Source: an uncultured archaeon (GTDB taxonomy: Archaea > Thermoproteota > Nitrososphaeria_A > Caldarchaeales > Wolframiiraptoraceae). From it: a stretch of 64,000 nucleotides of DNA. Of this stretch, positions 14,869-21,699 are shown piece after piece. The notes beneath the pieces are model-generated. The model made no database searches and had not been told where the DNA came from. It saw only the letters and a program-made list of their open reading frames with translations. The first letter of the stretch is position 1. Every line of letters starts with the position of its first letter. Where the stretch lies: positions 32,001-96,000 of the forward strand of contig CALKCF010000007.1 of the NCBI GenBank assembly GCA_938083505.1, written 5' to 3'. The position numbers and the translations under genes are program-made.

Positions 14869-15891
14869 CGTACGCTTTCCTTTTAGCAGAATTTCGATGA
14901 ACCTTTTTGTTACGTCTTCTGCGGTCGCTCTACCGCCTAAATCAGGTGTCAGGCTCTTCGGGTCCTGCAGTAAGCAGAGCACAGTGTCCTCCAGGTCTCT
15001 TGCCGCTTTTAGCATGACCGTGTTGTTCTTTTTCTTGCCAAGCCACTCGAGCATCATCTTTGACGCCATAATTTGAGCTATAGGGTTTGCGTATAGTGGG
15101 TTGATGTCCGGCGCCGTTCCGTGAACCGGCTCGAACAGGCCGAACTCGTCTCCTATATTGGCCGAGTAGGCTAGGCCCAAGCTACCAACTATGCCCGCAG
15201 CCTCGTCGCTCAGTATATCGCCGAACATATTCGTCGTGAGTATGACATCGAACTTCTGTGGATTACTCACGAGCTGGTACGCCGCATTATCGACGAGCAC
15301 CTCCTCTATAGTTACGTAGGGATAAGATTTAGCGACCTCGAACGTTGCCCTTCTTAAAAGCTCAAAACTTTTCAGCACGTTTACCTTGTGGACGACCGTC
15401 ACCCTTTTCTTCCTGGCTTCTGCTATCTGAAACGCAACATTAGCTATCCTCAAGCACGCCTTCTTAGTAAGCACCATAAGGGCAACCGCATACTCCTCGC
15501 CGACGTCCTCAAGGCCTTTATACAAGTCTTCTGTGTTCTCCCTGACGATCACTAAATCCACATCACTCCACTTGGAGCTCACTCCAGGAAACGTCCTGAA
15601 GGGTCTTATATTGGCATAAAGGTCCAGCTTCTGCCTTAGGAAGACTATTACGTCCTTCGCCGACTCGCCGACAGGCCCCTTTAAGCATGCGTCTGAAGAC
15701 CTTATCTTGTCGAACGAGTCCTTCGGTAGCGGCTCGCCGAAATCCTTCTTTGCAGAATCGCCGGCTGGTGCCTCCACGAAGCTCAAATTGAAACCATAAG
15801 CCTCAGAAATGACCTCCAATACTTTTTTTGCAGACCTGACGACGACAGGGCCTATGCCGTCGCCCGGTATTACGCTTATGAGGTTTGCCAT
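14863..15891 (-). CDS. leuB: 3-isopropylmalate dehydrogenase (isocitrate/isopropylmalate dehydrogenase family)
   Basis: [33 protein letters not shown]; divergent from a leuA-like gene. Confidence 0.85.
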
Positions 15892-15915
15892 ATTCTAGCC
15901 CACTTTTCTGTGAAT

Positions 15916-15952
15916 ATTTAAGCGTTGAAATCTGGCATCATGGGACCATGAT
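15916..15952 (-). promoter_or_regulatory. Probable leaderless leuB promoter with an upstream 7-2-7 palindrome
   Basis: Minus-strand CAACG-CTTAAATA about 30 nt above the ATG; ATCATGG-GA-CCATGAT at 15937-15952. Confidence 0.5.
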
Positions 15953-15982
15953 CGCAGCATCTGTACTTTTCCGGCAAACTGT

Positions 15983-16032
15983 GAATTAGTTCAGTATTCG
16001 CGGAAAAATTTTCCAGCATGCTGAACTAATTC
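15983..16032. repeat. Long inverted repeat in the leuB/leuA divergent intergenic region
   Basis: GAATTAGTTCAGTAT...ATGCTGAACTAATTC (14/15 match) enclosing GGAAAA-A-TTTTCC. Confidence 0.8.
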
Positions 16033-16034
16033 TC

Positions 16035-16204
16035 GAGAAACGCTTATATATCGTTTGCCAACAAAGATGTGTAAGTTCGATAGGTGAGCAAAGTGAACCA
16101 ACTCGAATAAATTTGGCAAAACTTTTCGAGCTAACATCTAACAAAACCTTTCAAAAATCCTGTTCTGTCGATGTTGTTGCACTTCTTCTCTGAGGTGCTG
16201 TCCA
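16035..16204 (+). promoter_or_regulatory. leuA promoter (BRE/TATA) and a long leader with uORF MNQLE (16093-16110)
   Basis: GAAACG-CTTATATA; SD-like AGGTGA at 16082 ahead of GTG AAC CAA CTC GAA TAA. Confidence 0.5.
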
Positions 16205-17731
16205 ATGGCTTGGAGGAAAATACTATCTGAGGGGTATAACATTCCCGAGAGAGTTAGTATATTCGACACGACCCTAAGAGATGGTGAGCAGACGCCTGGC
16301 GTCGCCCTGACGCCGGAGGATAAGGTCGAGATAGCTATACAGCTCGACAAGCTCGGCGTCGACATCATAGAAGCAGGCTTTCCGATAACCTCGAAGGGTG
16401 AACAGAAGGCCGTATCGGACATATGTAAGCTCGGCCTCTCGGCCAAAATATGCGCACTTGCAAGGTGCGAGAAGAACGACATAGATGCGGCGGTCGATGC
16501 TGGCGTCGATTGGGTCCACGTGTTCCTGGCAACCTCCGACATACACCTAAAGCACAAGCTTAGGATGACAAGGGAGCAAGCCCTCACGAAGATAGCAGAA
16601 GCTGTTGAGTATGCTAAATCAAGAGGGGTGATTGTTCATTACTCGGCCGAAGATGCGACAAGGACAGAACATGACTTTCTGATGAAAGCGTTAAAAGTAG
16701 CAGTCGATGCTGGAGCGGACAGTGTAGACATACCAGACACCGTTGGCTTTGGGATACCCGCGGCAATTCGTAGAATAGTGTCCTCTGCGAAGTTTGTTAC
16801 AGGAAAGCCAGTAGCAGTTCACTGTCATGACGACATGGGGTTGGCAGTAGCAAACTCGCTTTCAGCCGTCGAAGCAGGTGCGGAGATAATCCATGCGACG
16901 ATTAACGGAATAGGTGAGAGGGCTGGCAATGCAAGCTTAGAGGAGATAGTCGTAGCACTAAACATGCTTTACGGTGTGAAGACTAACATAAACCTACAAG
17001 AGATATACAAGACGTCTAGGCTTGTTGCAAAGCTTACTGGTGTTTGGATTCCTAAGAACAAGGCAATAGTCGGCGAGAACGCTTTTGCGCACGAGAGCGG
17101 TATACACGTGCACGGTATACTCGGCTCTCCTGAAACTTACGAACCAATAGCACCAGAACTTGTCGGAAGGAGAAGGAAGATAGTTGCCGGAAAGCACTCA
17201 GGCATACACAGCATAGATTTCCTGCTTAAAGAGCGCGGTCTTGAGATGGACAAGGTGAAGGCTAGAGAAGTTCTGGAAAGGGTCAAAGCCCTCGGGGATA
17301 TGGGCATGAGGGTTTCGGACGCCAAACTTAAGGAGATAGCTGAAGAAATTGTAGGCGAGTCAAGAGATTCTCGGACAATATTCCTGAAGGAGTTCAGCGT
17401 CGTATCGAATACGAATTGTGCGACGGCGCGCATATCTTTGAAAATAGGCGACGAAGTCATCACGGCTGAGTCTTTAGACCACAGCCCGGTTGCCGCATCC
17501 CTCTCAGCCCTTCTGAACGCTGTATCGAGAAAGATGAACATCAAGTTGATTGACTTTAGAATCGATGCAACATCTTACTCACCAGATTTGAAATGTGAGG
17601 CAGAAGTAGTTTTGAGTGTCAACAACTCACAGGAGTATGTTGGCGAGGCGGTCGGGCACGACCCGGCTTTTGTCACAGTAAACGCCATAATAACGGGCAT
17701 CGAGAAGGCTGTGCAGTCCTCTCGGTCATAG
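16205..17731 (+). CDS. leuA: 2-isopropylmalate synthase (citramalate synthase not excluded)
   Basis: [29 protein letters not shown], plus a C-terminal regulatory domain. Confidence 0.8.
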
Positions 17732-17754
17732 GTGGAGTAACATGAAAGTTATCA

Positions 17755-17925
17755 CGAAACGTTTTTATAATGCGGAAGTTTTTCCCTTCACTTTGAGATG
17801 TGAGGGTGATAATAATGCGCCAAATTATCTAGCAATTTTAGATAAGCCCTCACCTAGTATCTACCCTCTAGTATCGTGCTGTTCTCTTCTTTATCTGGAA
17901 ATCCATTTGTATGCGGTGAAGGCAT
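17755..17925 (+). promoter_or_regulatory. ilvB promoter (BRE/TATA) and a structured leader with uORF MRQII (17815-17832)
   Basis: GAAACG-TTTTTATAA; SD-like GAGGGTGA ahead of ATG CGC CAA ATT ATC TAG; stems TTATCTA/TAGATAA and GTGAGGG/CCCTCAC. Confidence 0.55.
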
Positions 17926-19671
17926 ATGGTAAGGGCAGCTGATGCTCTGGTCAAGGCCATGGAATCAAAGGGTGTGGAGGTCATCTTCGGTATACCCGGT
18001 GGTTCTAATTTAACGTTTTACGACGCGCTGTATGACAGTAACATAAGAACCATACTGATGAGGCATGAACAGCAGGCAGTGCATGCGGCAGAGGGTTATG
18101 CAAGGGTTAAGGGAAGGCCTGGGATAGCCTTAGCGACATCAGGTCCAGGTGCAACGAACCTAGTGACCGGAATAGTTAACGCGATGATGGACAGTCAGCC
18201 TGTTATAGCGATAACTGGTCAGGTAACGCGCGACGTGCTCGGAACAGATGCCTTCCAAGAAACGGACATAACAGGCATACTTTTGCCCGTCACAAAATAT
18301 ACTGTAACTGTCAAAGACCCATCTAAGCTTGCCCAGACGTTCATAGACGCATGGTACATCGCCACAACCGGCAGGCCTGGTCCTGTTCTCATCGACGTTC
18401 CAAGGGACGTGTTCCAAGCAGAGGTCGAGCCTCAGTGGAAGAACGAGCCAAGTCTAGCGAAGTATGTGCTAGACTCTCAGATAAGCCATGTCCATGAACC
18501 GGACCCGGAGCTCATAGTGAGGGCTGCCGAGATATTGACGAACGCCGAGAAACCCGTGATAATAGCTGGCGGAGGTGTGATAATAAGTAACGCTTCCGAG
18601 GAACTCGTCAAGCTGGCCGAGTACCTTATGGCTCCTGTCGTGGTTACAACACCTGGTCTGGGTTCCATACCTTCTGACCACCCGCTCATGCTGGGCGTCA
18701 TTGGTATGCATGGCAGAATTGAGGCAAACCTTGCCGTGATAGAGTCGGACACGATTCTGGCAGTCGGTATAAGGTTCTCCGATAGGTCTGTTGGAAGGTT
18801 TGATGAGCTTCAAAGAGATAGAAAGATAATCCACATAGATATAGATGCTAGCGAGATCAGCAAGAATGTTACACCAACCGTAGGCATAGTCGGCGATGCC
18901 AAGAGGACTTTGGCCGAAATTTATGCCTGCGTAACTTCAAGGATTGCAAGAAAAGACGCGAGACCATTCGTTCAAAGGCTCAAAGCGATAGGTGAGAGGT
19001 TTGATGAGTTCATGAACAACCATGGCGAACTGAGTAGGATAACTCCTTGGCGTGCGCTTAAGGTGATAAGAGAGGAGTTACCACGGAATGCAATAGTAGC
19101 GACGGGTGTCGGGCAACACCAGATGTGGGTCCAGCTTTACTTCAAGGTTTTCGAGCCAAGAACGCTTCTGACGAGTTGCGGCCTCGGAACTATGGGCTTC
19201 GGCCTACCTGCTGCCATCGGCGCGAAAATTGCAGCACCAGACAGGGCCGTAGCCTGCATCGATGGCGACGGTAGTTTCATCATGACGTGCCAGAGCTTGA
19301 TACCGATAGCCCAGTACGACATACCCATTATATGCATAATATTCAACAATAGGGTCCTAGGTATGATAAGGCAGTGGCAGGACTTCTTCTACCAAAAAAG
19401 GTACAAGGATGAGAGTCTCAATATATATCTAAAGAAATACGTCAGTAAAAGCGTTGATTATGTGAAGCTCGCAGAATCCATGGGTGTAGAGGGAGCTTTA
19501 GCAGAGTCGCTGGACGATTTAAGGATGTTAATTAGGAGGGCTGTAAGAGCAGGACAAGCGCTGGTCATAGACTTGCCGATAGACAAGGATGAGAGAGTAC
19601 TGCCAATGGTACCTCCTGGCAAGTGGCTCAGTCAGATGATAGTGCCCCAGGGGTTCGATATCTATGGTTAA
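17926..19671 (+). CDS. ilvB: Acetolactate synthase large subunit
   Basis: FGIPGG, RHEQ, TSGPGATN, DAFQE, GDGS...NN TPP motif. Confidence 0.96.
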   Translation: MVRAADALVKAMESKGVEVIFGIPGGSNLTFYDALYDSNIRTILMRHEQQAVHAAEGYARVKGRPGIALATSGPGATNLVTGIVNAMMDSQPVIAITGQVTRDVLGTDAFQETDITGILLPVTKYTVTVKDPSKLAQTFIDAWYIATTGRPGPVLIDVPRDVFQAEVEPQWKNEPSLAKYVLDSQISHVHEPDPELIVRAAEILTNAEKPVIIAGGGVIISNASEELVKLAEYLMAPVVVTTPGLGSIPSDHPLMLGVIGMHGRIEANLAVIESDTILAVGIRFSDRSVGRFDELQRDRKIIHIDIDASEISKNVTPTVGIVGDAKRTLAEIYACVTSRIARKDARPFVQRLKAIGERFDEFMNNHGELSRITPWRALKVIREELPRNAIVATGVGQHQMWVQLYFKVFEPRTLLTSCGLGTMGFGLPAAIGAKIAAPDRAVACIDGDGSFIMTCQSLIPIAQYDIPIICIIFNNRVLGMIRQWQDFFYQKRYKDESLNIYLKKYVSKSVDYVKLAESMGVEGALAESLDDLRMLIRRAVRAGQALVIDLPIDKDERVLPMVPPGKWLSQMIVPQGFDIYG

Positions 19672-19933
19672 GCATACGTTCACCGCATTGATAGAGGACT
19701 CACTGGAGGCACTCCTCAAAGTATTCTTGACTACGAAGCAAGCTCAGGCGAAGCTTATCCGTGTGGAAGTTGACGATTCTGGTATAGATAACGTCAAGCT
19801 CTTAACTATGACGGTGTCGGTAAAACCTGAAAGGGCGGAGTGGCTCAAGAGAAAGTTATTTAACCTACCTGTGGTGCTGAAGGTAGATTACACAATATCG
19901 GATACGGGTCTGATGAAAAGTATGGATGCATAG
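19664..19933 (+). CDS. ACT-domain protein, probable acetolactate synthase small subunit
   Basis: 89 aa ACT-like pattern, overlaps the ilvB stop, lies between ilvB and ilvC. Confidence 0.65.
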
Positions 19934-19947
19934 GTGGTGAGAGGCAG

Positions 19948-20928
19948 ATGGTAAAAATATACTACGAGAGCGACATAAGCCTCGAGCCGCTGCTTGGTAA
20001 GAAGGTAGCAGTCATAGGTTACGGGAGCCAAGGAAGGGCCCAAGCACTCAACATGAGGGACTCTGGAATAGACGTCATTGTTGGTGTTAGAGAAGGAGGA
20101 AAATCTTGGAGTGTGGTGAAAGAAGACGGTCTTGAGCCGCTTCCTGTAGAGAAGGCAGCGAAGGAAGGAGACGTAATCCACATGCTAATACCGGATGTGA
20201 TGCAGCCTGAGGTTTACAAGAAATTCATAGAACCAAACCTGAAAGCTGGAAAGGTCTTGGGCTTCTCGCATGGCTACAACATACACTTTAGGCAGATCAT
20301 ACCACCAAGTTACGTGGACGTCGTGCTCGTCGCTCCTAAGGCACCAGGTCCGAGAATGCGTGAGCTCTACCTTGAAGGCAAGGGCGTCCCGGCACTTTTC
20401 GCGGTGAAACAGGATTATTCTGGAAACGCAAGGATGATAGCTTTGGCTATGGCTAAGGCGTTAGGTTGCGCCAGGGCTGGCGTCCTTGAGACGACATTTA
20501 AGGAGGAGACGGAAACTGACCTACTGGGAGAGCAAGCGGTTTTGGTTGGCGGTCTCATTGAGCTCATAAAGAAGGGATATGAGGTACTGGTCGAGGCAGG
20601 ATACCAGCCAGAGCTTGCATACTTCGAAGTATGCAACGAGATGAAGCTAATAGTCGACTTAATATATAAAGGAGGCTTGGTCGGAATGCTGAAGGCAGTC
20701 TCCGATACCGCAAAGTTCGGCGGCCTACTTGTGGGCTCCCAGATAATCGACGAGCGTGTAAAGGAGAATATGAGGGAGGCTCTCAGGAGAATTCAAGACG
20801 GCTCCTTCGCGAGACTTTGGAGCGAAGACCCGAGGAGTAAGCTAATACTCGAGAAGAAGATGGAGGAAATAAGGAACCATCCAATAGAGAAAGTGGGCGA
20901 GGCCGTTAGGAAGTTGGCCCAAATATAG
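19948..20928 (+). CDS. ilvC: Ketol-acid reductoisomerase
   Basis: [33 protein letters not shown]. Confidence 0.97.
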
Positions 20929-21699
20929 TCAGCCTTGGAATAAGATCGGAAGGAGTTTGTAGTACACTGCCAGGCCGAACAGGAGCAGAGACATTAACAA
21001 GACCACATAGTCCTTAGCACTCATTTTAAGTTCTCTTAATGAAGTTCTTTTCTTCGCAGCACCAAAGCACTTAACTTCCATCGCCTCCGCCAACTCGTAT
21101 GCCCTTCTGAGAGCGTTCGCGAGGAGCGGTACGAGTATCGGTATAAGCTTCTTAGCTCTCTCTAAAGGCCCGCCCCTGTCCAGCTCGACGCCGCGTGCCC
21201 TCTGCGCATCCATGATGTCTTTGAGCTCTTGGGCTATTATCGGCGTAAACCTTATCGCCGATATGAAGGCGAATGTGTATGGGTAGGGGACACGCCAGCT
21301 TGTAAGCGTTAGCCCTATCTCTTCCGGTGTCGTGGTCAAGAAGAATATTGAGAACGATGAAAGGAACAGCACAAGCCTGTACGCTAGCGTTGCTGAATAG
21401 TAAAGCGTCTCTTGCAATGTCGCATGGGTATCAGTCGAGATGAAGAATATAGCATTTAAACCAAAGACAAGGGCAGCCAGGGGCATCGAGCCCCTTATCG
21501 TCTTAAGCCAGCGTCGCACTATCTTAGCAATGTAAGCCATAACCGCCTGTACTGTTATGAGAATCGTCAGCATCCATACCTCTGCATACATCACGACTAT
21601 GATGAGCATTATCGTGGAAACGAGAAGTTTCACCCTTGGATCGAGCTTGTGTATCGCTGTATCGCCAGCGTAGAACTTAAGCCCCTCTAGTATGCTCAA
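20929..21699 (-). CDS. ecfT: ECF transporter transmembrane T component
   Basis: LDPRVK, AQRARG, AEAMEVK. Confidence 0.92.
   Translation of the reverse strand: MSILEGLKFYAGDTAIHKLDPRVKLLVSTIMLIIVVMYAEVWMLTILITVQAVMAYIAKIVRRWLKTIRGSMPLAALVFGLNAIFFISTDTHATLQETLYYSATLAYRLVLFLSSFSIFFLTTTPEEIGLTLTSWRVPYPYTFAFISAIRFTPIIAQELKDIMDAQRARGVELDRGGPLERAKKLIPILVPLLANALRRAYELAEAMEVKCFGAAKKRTSLRELKMSAKDYVVLLMSLLLFGLAVYYKLLPILFQG

Follow-up and report, generated by a model that had tools for sequence, protein, structure and literature searches.

The window analysed here is a 64,000-nucleotide (nt) stretch of contig CALKCF010000007.1, from the 1.15-Mb genome of a hot-spring archaeon of the genus Candidatus Terraquivivens (Caldarchaeales, formerly 'Aigarchaeota'; the genus name is given in PMC9246946). 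Within it, the gap between leuA (2-isopropylmalate synthase) and ilvB (biosynthetic acetolactate synthase) holds a promoter and a predicted 5' leader, in which a Shine-Dalgarno (SD) sequence precedes a five-codon open reading frame (ORF) ending in two Ile codons. Promoter, SD, reading frame, stop and codon class of this mini-ORF are conserved among relatives. We put at roughly even the likelihood that the mini-ORF is a translated cis sensor of Ile/Val/Leu-tRNA supply, of the leader-peptide type, controlling ilvB, an 89-amino-acid (aa) ORF and ilvC; having been kept in every relative, it probably gauges amino-acid supply. From sequence comparison we infer that the mini-ORF would be translated, that ribosomes would pause at its final sense codons when supply is low, and that ilvB expression would consequently be raised.

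Promoter and mini-ORF of the ilvB leader

The features first needed are as follows.

17754-17770, + strand: BRE/TATA (B recognition element and TATA box) of ilvB, ACGAAACG plus TTTTTATAA, a conserved promoter
17792-17796, + strand: predicted transcription start site (TSS), from TATA geometry
17800-17810, + strand: SD1 block GUGAGGGUGAU, nearly invariant in ten leaders and 5' partner of two C-rich segments
17815-17832, + strand: mini-ORF ATG CGC CAA ATT ATC TAG (MRQII-stop); an in-frame GTG at 17800 gives ten codons

Leaders of relatives were collected by BLAST of 17600-18100 against 41 related genomes. The leuA-ilvB spacer was matched in all six of the other Terraquivivens genomes and was absent outside the genus; the resulting set comprised ten homologous leaders from seven species, three two-copy genomes giving two leaders apiece. 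Scanning genomes and metagenomes for patterns anchored on SD1 and on the start of ilvB brought up no Terraquivivens species beyond those known, the other matches being near-identical contigs or due to chance.

The BRE/TATA that the original prediction had placed before the leader (GAAACG at 17756-17761 and TTTTTATAA at 17762-17770, as read directly) is present and conserved in 10/10 leaders. ACGAAAYGYTTTTATAA is invariant in all ten, including three that are preceded by a first ilvB copy instead of leuA, and the motif GAAAYGYTTWTATA occurs only twice in the 1.15-Mb genome, at the ilvB and leuA promoters. Across the genome, TATA-like 7-mers are most frequent 28-48 nt upstream of start codons, for which reason the TSS was placed ~30 nt after the TATA; this leaves ~20 nt between the predicted 5' end and the start of the mini-ORF, and ~130 nt to the ATG of ilvB. 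The distance from TATA to mini-ORF start, 48-51 nt, is the usual geometry of SD-led first genes of this genome, and the ilvB ATG, at 162 nt from the TATA, is far beyond the usual range. Given this predicted TSS, the leuA-ilvB spacer is a genus-specific promoter followed by a 5' leader of ~130 nt.

Within SD1, GAGGGTGA is read at 17802-17809, and the 3' end of the 16S rRNA of this genome is ...GGAUCACCUCCU. Being complementary to that end, GGUGAU (17805-17810) constitutes a perfect 6/6 SD; it is perfect in 10/10 leaders and lies ~10 nt from the predicted 5' end in the window. The SD-led upstream ORF (uORF) encoding MRQII, extendable to GTG 17800, was found just as originally described, and its frame is kept in all ten leaders. 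It is the sole ORF whose stop column (17830-17832) is common to the ten, the stop being always TAA or TAG, and its start shifts between two adjacent in-frame codons (ATG, ATG-GTG or GTG) and is lost in none. The encoded peptides are MRQII (window), MRRQVL (three leaders), MRHQVL, (V)RQVL, MRRQIP, MVRQIL (two) and (V)RQIL. Of the 20 codons at their final two sense positions, hereafter the test codons (ATT ATC, 17824-17829, in the window), 19 specify Ile, Val or Leu, using six codons (ATT, ATC, GTC, GTT, CTC and CTA); codons for these three residues make up 26% of the genome-wide total. A ten-codon version, with four to six branched-chain codons, is possible in nine of the ten leaders, from an in-frame GTG or ATG at the position of 17800. 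Alignment of the relatives' leaders thus bore out a conserved uORF and an Ile/Val/Leu codon class, and gave no sign of the covarying stems that were also looked for.

Tandem ilvB pairs lie ~450 nt apart in G001 (L003/L011), G005 (L004/L012) and G002 (L006/L013), each copy with its own promoter and leader; in all three genomes ..QVL precedes the first ilvB and ..QIL the second. The two ilvB proteins of G001 are almost identical through gene conversion, yet their leaders remain distinct (..QVL versus ..QIL). An ilvB tree did not assign the window copy to either paralogue, gene conversion blurring the signal.

The leuA leader across the order

A leader lies also before leuA, 1.7 kb upstream of the ilvB leader.

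16035-16204, + strand: leuA leader, with BRE/TATA at 16035-16050 and SD GGTGA at 16083-16087
16093-16110, + strand: leuA mini-ORF GTG AAC CAA CTC GAA TAA

In Terraquivivens the leuA mini-ORF follows the pattern GTG A(G/A)C CAA CTC GAN TAR and encodes MSQLE, MSQLD or MNQLE in 7/7 genomes, its Leu codon occupying in each the position of the Val or Ile of the ilvB leader. The TATA-to-mini-ORF distance is 50 nt, the promoter motif is that of ilvB, and the interval from mini-ORF stop to main ATG is 94 nt for leuA against 93 nt for ilvB. Throughout the genome, GGTGA-N10-GCCAA is common to exactly these two promoters. An nhmmer comparison of each leader with the whole genome detected neither additional copies nor homology of the leuA leader to that of ilvB, so that their description as a 'duplicated cassette' is unproven. 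A loose genome search for TATA, SD, mini-ORF and long ORF in succession gave seven sites, three of them intragenic, with leuA and ilvB among the other four; another intergenic site of this pattern (G000:C5:6764-6832, minus strand, peptide LVPYR) precedes a 267-aa ORF.

The wider leuA set comprised 28 leaders from eight other genera of the order. All share an invariant UAUUGCUY 49-53 nt past the TATA, with GGUG 9-10 nt upstream of it, read in the frame [U/C/A]UA UUG CUY as Leu/Ile-Leu-Leu with variation that is synonymous or conservative only. This short frame ends after 5-9 codons in 28/28 leaders, the other frames running for 4-48 and 23-36 codons. A 5'-proximal branched-chain mini-ORF is therefore old in the leuA(-ilvB) operon of the order, and the Terraquivivens ilvB leader, judged from these comparisons, is a newer unit of the same kind as the leuA leaders. 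A fixed 'ruler' of 93-94 nt from mini-ORF to main start was considered and set aside as a property of some genera only; across the order the mini-ORF start lies 62-123 nt from the leuA ATG (~38-105 nt from the stop). In upstream regions sampled across the phylum, leuA is mostly operon-internal. Another family of Thermoproteota, f9 (L122-L127), has leuA leaders of ~150 nt in which an SD-led small ORF is followed by the conserved block AAAGGGGGCGAGAYWACCTG; these may represent a different leader family.

The same conserved nucleotides might act as DNA. In such a scheme GTGAGGGTGA...GCGCCAA, together with BRE/TATA, would bind a factor (e.g. of Lrp/AsnC type) co-regulating leuA and ilvB, and the mini-ORF would be a by-product. 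Nucleotides invariant even at synonymous positions are in keeping with an operator, as is the restriction of GAAAYGYTTWTATA and GGTGA-N10-GCCAA to the two promoters, and promoter control is the only established mode of archaeal transcription regulation (PMC8448881). We nevertheless regard an operator as rather unlikely: it leaves unexplained why the start codon is always kept while moving and the stop column is fixed, and why the variable positions stay within Ile, Val and Leu codons; the 28 leuA leaders elsewhere in the order keep a 5-9-codon frame with sequence free after codon 2; and the block lacks dyad symmetry, the motif having no further copies in the genome.

The leuA leaders bear also on the reading that there is no regulatory role, an inserted promoter having brought with it a long, drifting leader whose mini-ORF is kept by shared descent. 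All ten ilvB leaders come from one genus at 73-82% identity, as such a reading would have it, and the statistics of two test codons are weak taken alone. The start codon, however, was turned over and never lost, a leader of like build, with no homology detected, precedes leuA, and the leuA mini-ORF is kept order-wide; we hold the absence of any role to be extremely unlikely.

Directly upstream of the leuA BRE/TATA, a 50-bp nested palindrome (15983-16032) was noted as a dispersed repeat; when both orientations are counted, it has 13 matches in this genome and as many as 18 in a relative. Because it is dispersed it is unlikely to be a leuA-specific regulator site, and it looks more like an element of the REP (repetitive extragenic palindrome) or MITE (miniature inverted-repeat transposable element) kind.

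Pairing, open frames and output of the candidate sensor

The remainder of the leader comprises the following segments.

17825-17845, + strand: hairpin over the Ile codons and stop, in the window only; its 3' arm is missing from the other nine leaders
17846-17854, + strand: C-rich segment GCCCUCACC, with SD1 or the ilvB SD as alternative partners
17855-17875, + strand: block YAGYAUC-UACCCUC-YAGYAUC, the second SD1 partner, conserved in 7/10 leaders
17876-17914, + strand: G-poor, pyrimidine-rich spacer, U-rich at 17880-17896 (11 T in 17 bases)
17915-17928, + strand: ilvB SD GGUGAAGGC and ATG, with GGTGAA and ATGGTAA invariant in ten leaders

If the mini-ORF is a sensor, a ribosome loading on SD1 would translate the 5-6-codon ORF (ten codons if GUG 17800 starts) and, when charged Ile-, Val- or Leu-tRNA is scarce, would pause at the two test codons. 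Paused near the 5' end, it would keep SD1 GUGAGGGUGAU from both of its C-rich partners and so remodel the leader, and the remodelled leader might, in the G-poor, U/C-rich spacer, alter either premature termination by FttA or decay in the 5'-to-3' direction; alternatively, the output might be an altered flow of ribosomes to the ilvB start. The genome has genes for an orthologue of FttA, an analogue of Rho with a preference for U-rich RNA (PMC11616081), and for a KH-less beta-CASP paralogue.

As to the pairings themselves, TTATCTA (17825-17831) and TAGATAA (17839-17845) are exact complements and form a hairpin in the RNAfold minimum-free-energy structure. The Ile-codon stem of the original prediction thus exists and folds in the window, but it is private to it. 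Eight of the nine other leaders have instead a GGCGG/CUCGCC hairpin a few bases downstream (columns 46-65, 80% of cells paired). The C-rich GCCCTCACC at 17846-17854 is complementary both to GTGAGGG at 17800-17806 (7/7) and to GGTGAAGGC at 17915-17923 (8/9). Over the ten leaders, GUGAGGG:CCYUCRC (17848-17854; columns 9-15:57-63) has 95.7% of cells paired, versus 40-69% with a slid partner, and the C-rich segment (columns 56-64) with the ilvB SD has 75%, versus 34-56% in other registers. For the two alternative pairings that had been proposed, therefore, complementarity is conserved but compensatory change or covariation is not found. The 17855-17875 block, which is changed in G001a and G002a and has lost half its length in G004, forms with SD1 the outer helix of several single-sequence folds, and the pairing potential of SD1 with AUCUACCCUC (columns 69-78) is 86%. 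Shorter pairings link further segments: GGUG:CGCC (columns 14-17:27-30) is 100% paired, CGCC(A):(U)GGCG (columns 27-31:46-50) 70% and GGGCGGG:CUCGCCC (columns 46-52:59-65) 80%. To judge from complementarity, these overlapping segments look like an attenuator's chain of alternatives. Between the uORF stop and the ilvB SD (17833-17914) the composition is 13% G and 39% T, versus 22% and 28% genome-wide, and the spacer is pyrimidine-rich in 10/10 leaders.

Several results weigh against a sensor. The seven species are closely related, and counts over ten leaders are for that reason not independent. The test codons number two only, not a run, and leader G006 has Ile-Pro; five of six inferred test-codon nucleotide changes keep Ile, Val or Leu, with a chance p of ~0.18. 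Even synonymous sites do not vary in CGCCAA and SD1, so that a nucleotide-level constraint, on RNA or DNA, acts too. The window and G004 are without the GGGCGG segment, and G004 misses the 5' arm of the GGCGG/CUCGCC hairpin. Six candidate helices show no compensatory change beyond that of shuffles among the ten leaders, and the window leader has an unremarkable fold energy (z = -0.9, matched or bettered by 38 of 200 shuffles). T runs reach no more than 2-4 bases in the individual leaders of the ten, and a scan of 17733-17925 yielded no terminator-like site. In equilibrium folding at 37 and 70 C, the probability that the ilvB SD is unpaired is practically equal, in most of the ten leaders, between free RNA and RNA on which a masked ribosome footprint covers the test codons or the stop; where exposure does shift, it does so in no consistent direction.

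These results leave parts of the original prediction without support. Its anti-SD switch, with ilvB SD accessibility essentially unchanged under the ribosome footprint in most leaders, is without computational support from equilibrium folding, though kinetic effects may play a part, and a model of ilvB SD unmasking was not adopted because masking produced no consistent change of exposure. The U-rich tract at 17880-17896 does have 11 T in 17 bases; by the archaeal criterion applied (a U tract of 5 or more), with no T run above 4 in ten leaders, a U-tract terminator is not evident. We accordingly favour a transcript-level or ribosome-delivery output over simple unmasking of the ilvB SD. Should the mini-ORF be a sensor, remodelling with termination or decay would be the foremost candidate for its output, at somewhat less than an even chance; relay through the open -1 frame described below would be a possible but less probable route, pure 5'-end protection slightly less probable again, and masking of the ilvB SD (SD2) the least so.

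The pairings invite another account, that of a structured cis RNA (a riboswitch, or a protein- or tRNA-binding leader) working through the SD-like and anti-SD-like segments, with the small ORF not decoded. Its attractions are the chain of overlapping complementary segments, 70-100% paired, and the conserved YAGYAUC-UACCCUC-YAGYAUC block. Against these stand the want of covariation, a stability no better than that of shuffles, and the lack of any relevant Rfam match, an Rfam cmscan covering 15000-21000 with E up to 10 having yielded only chance-level snoRNA (small nucleolar RNA) and miRNA (microRNA) matches. RNAalifold over the leaders found two small helices only. Moreover, the segments differ between the window and the other leaders, and the sequence and spacing of SD1 fit a genuine ribosome-binding site. 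We consider such an RNA very unlikely.

Two longer frames cross the spacer.

17820-17942, + strand: -1 frame from the mini-ORF, open in 10/10 leaders between the Gln codon and a stop that overlaps the start of ilvB
17742-17942, + strand: 66-codon ORF that reads in the -1 frame and spans the interval from leuA stop to ilvB start

The -1 frame stops at the UAA of AUGGUAA, 4 nt after the A of AUG, in six leaders, and at a UGA at +14 in four, including the window (17940-17942). The +1 frame is open in 4/10 leaders only; the chance of an open -1 frame is 0.30-0.42 per leader in shuffled spacers. All 35 leuA leaders have an open -1 frame, of 24-37 codons (16111-16196 in the window; L043-L055, L100-L119); it ends on or next to the leuA SD in ~31 of 35, often with a Leu/Ile/Val run (ALLLL, LRILLLW, IAIILLL), and has a canonical start in two genera only, AUU alone being present elsewhere. 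The 66-codon frame is open in 7/7 leuA-adjacent copies, with its ATG overlapping or adjoining the leuA stop. As a protein gene the 66-codon ORF was rejected: its codon-position differences (100/119/119) are without bias, it has no Pfam match, its second half is read in different frames among genomes, and it is broken in the three downstream copies. The -1 frame is either a leuA-to-ilvB coupling spacer on read-through transcripts or a frame entered by mini-ORF ribosomes.

As a side observation, the leuA stop of the window is TAG, 10 nt ahead of the ATG of the 66-codon frame (17729-17745), and leuA seems to extend in most of the six relatives as far as that ATG, with its stop overlapping it (ATGA; by eye in two), by which the window leuA would be a few codons shorter.

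A coupling spacer would mean that a promoter cassette split an ancestral overlap and that the 17742-17942 frame now passes ribosomes from leuA to ilvB, the mini-ORF being irrelevant. The frame is indeed open in every leuA-adjacent copy, mostly with ATGA at the leuA stop and with a stop overlapping the ilvB ATG; the G004 deletions are of 3 and 24 nt; and leuA and ilvB overlap directly in other genera. The substitutions, on the other hand, carry no codon-position bias, the three downstream copies are startless or broken in this frame yet keep promoter, SD1 and mini-ORF, and composition leaves two frames open in part of the leader. Coupling is, besides, compatible with a sensor; as the sole explanation we find it quite improbable. 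An operator, a structured RNA and a coupling spacer alike leave start turnover, the fixed stop and the order-wide short frame unexplained or explained in part.

In the other use of the -1 frame, the test codons would form a gate: a starved ribosome would slip by -1, read the open frame to the ilvB start (to the leuA SD in the twin leader) and there reinitiate or clear the start. Were this so, starvation would be turned directly into delivery of ribosomes to the enzyme gene, without terminator or RNA switch. A slippery heptamer is absent; the shift site would be C CAA (A/G/C)UY, and by the rules of pairing tRNA-Gln re-pairing on CCA would carry a middle-position mismatch. With the slippery site missing, we rate such frameshifting as unlikely.

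The genes concerned, and their neighbours, are arranged in this order.

Upstream of leuA: TBP, then leuB (minus strand)
16205-17731, + strand: leuA, 2-isopropylmalate synthase, exceeding the NCBIfam cut-off
leuA-ilvB gap: 194 nt, promoter and predicted leader
17926-19671, + strand: ilvB, biosynthetic acetolactate synthase (TIGR00118, 665 bits versus a cut-off of 538)
19664-19933, + strand: 89-aa ORF, overlapping the ilvB stop, preceding ilvC and sitting in the ilvN position
19948-20928, + strand: ilvC (Pfam, NCBIfam)
17926-20928, + strand: proposed regulated genes, ilvB, the 89-aa ORF and ilvC
From 20929: gene of an ECF (energy-coupling factor) transporter, convergent to ilvC

For the 89-aa ORF, Pfam and NCBIfam gave no family match, and none to ACT or ALS_ss_C even with E up to 10; the label 'ilvN' given to it earlier is not supported. 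The broader proposal, that stalling at Ile codons controls the ilv genes, is partly supported by the sensor-type features of the uORF; the Ile hairpin, the anti-SD switch, the terminator and 'ilvN' are not supported.

Other families of the order have leuA and ilvB adjoining or overlapping, stop to start (L008, L009). Genus g2 has ilvB alone, behind a short leader; of ten upstream stretches, the six in which the start was placed have a TATA-like sequence ~35-40 nt before the ATG and no uORF. As ilvB of g2 is without a uORF, the ilvB leader is not ancestral, and the adjoining genes of other families together with the lone ilvB of g2 imply that the spacer was inserted into an ancestral leuA-ilvB operon.

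Relation to known systems

Whether archaea use ribosome-sensed leader control is a long-standing question: like bacteria, they have transcription coupled to translation, yet the promoter is the only level at which their regulation is established (PMC8448881). uORFs have been reported in archaeal ribosome profiling (Ribo-seq; PMC11456600), and the literature searched contained no archaeal leader peptide for branched-chain amino acids and no leader-peptide control of archaeal amino-acid operons. Terraquivivens is uncultured. Its locus offers a compact, testable case, with two adjacent operons bearing product-matched mini-ORFs, with a paralogue-specific ..QVL versus ..QIL in the three two-copy genomes, and with a leuA-leader feature conserved across the whole order. 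Since no classical terminator is present, it may show how a sensor is wired to FttA, to 5'-to-3' decay, to re-initiation or possibly to frameshifting.

The ermC and cat genes are governed by translational attenuation, and a stalled ribosome stabilises ermC mRNA. They resemble the present case in a very short 5'-proximal leader ORF, at which a stalled ribosome alters the fate of the downstream cistron without a terminator; they differ in that a drug induces the stall and a hairpin clearly sequesters the main SD, whereas the predicted exposure of the Terraquivivens ilvB SD is insensitive to masking. Factor-dependent control at tnaC, through Rho, likewise has a uORF followed by an unstructured, G-poor spacer, and the Terraquivivens genome has FttA as an analogue (PMC11616081); tnaC senses free Trp through a 24-residue nascent peptide, and the role of FttA in Terraquivivens is putative. 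A hungry-codon or programmed frameshift sensor of the prfB type (PMC5009743) shares an SD just upstream of a short, stop-ended frame, and the Terraquivivens -1 frame is open to the structural gene; prfB shifts +1 on a slippery CUU U at its own stop, whereas Terraquivivens would shift -1 with poor re-pairing.

The Corynebacterium ilvBNC uORF, or ilvB-II motif, is also a conserved small uORF upstream of ilvB, with a proposed or demonstrated role in regulating the ilv operon (PMC10272879, PMC11857589); it differs in being bacterial, in having a three-hairpin attenuator with a terminator and in its longer Ile/Val/Leu run. The Terraquivivens leader has no sequence relationship to it (no Rfam match).

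The enterobacterial leader-peptide attenuators are those of ilvBN (ivbL), ilvGMEDA (ilvL) and leu (leuL), with ORFs of ~30 codons and runs of 4-15 test codons. The Terraquivivens mini-ORFs are unlike them in having 5-6 (or ten) codons, with two test codons directly before the stop, in an archaeal host and with neither a hairpin and U-run terminator nor a covarying terminator/antiterminator pair; archaeal RNA polymerase terminates differently, at U tracts and through FttA. They are like ivbL, ilvL and leuL in placing a short ORF, led by a ribosome-binding site and containing codons for the pathway product, in the leader of a branched-chain operon, with overlapping complementary segments downstream, and in matching those codons to the gene, with Leu at leuA and Val/Ile as well as Leu at ilvB.

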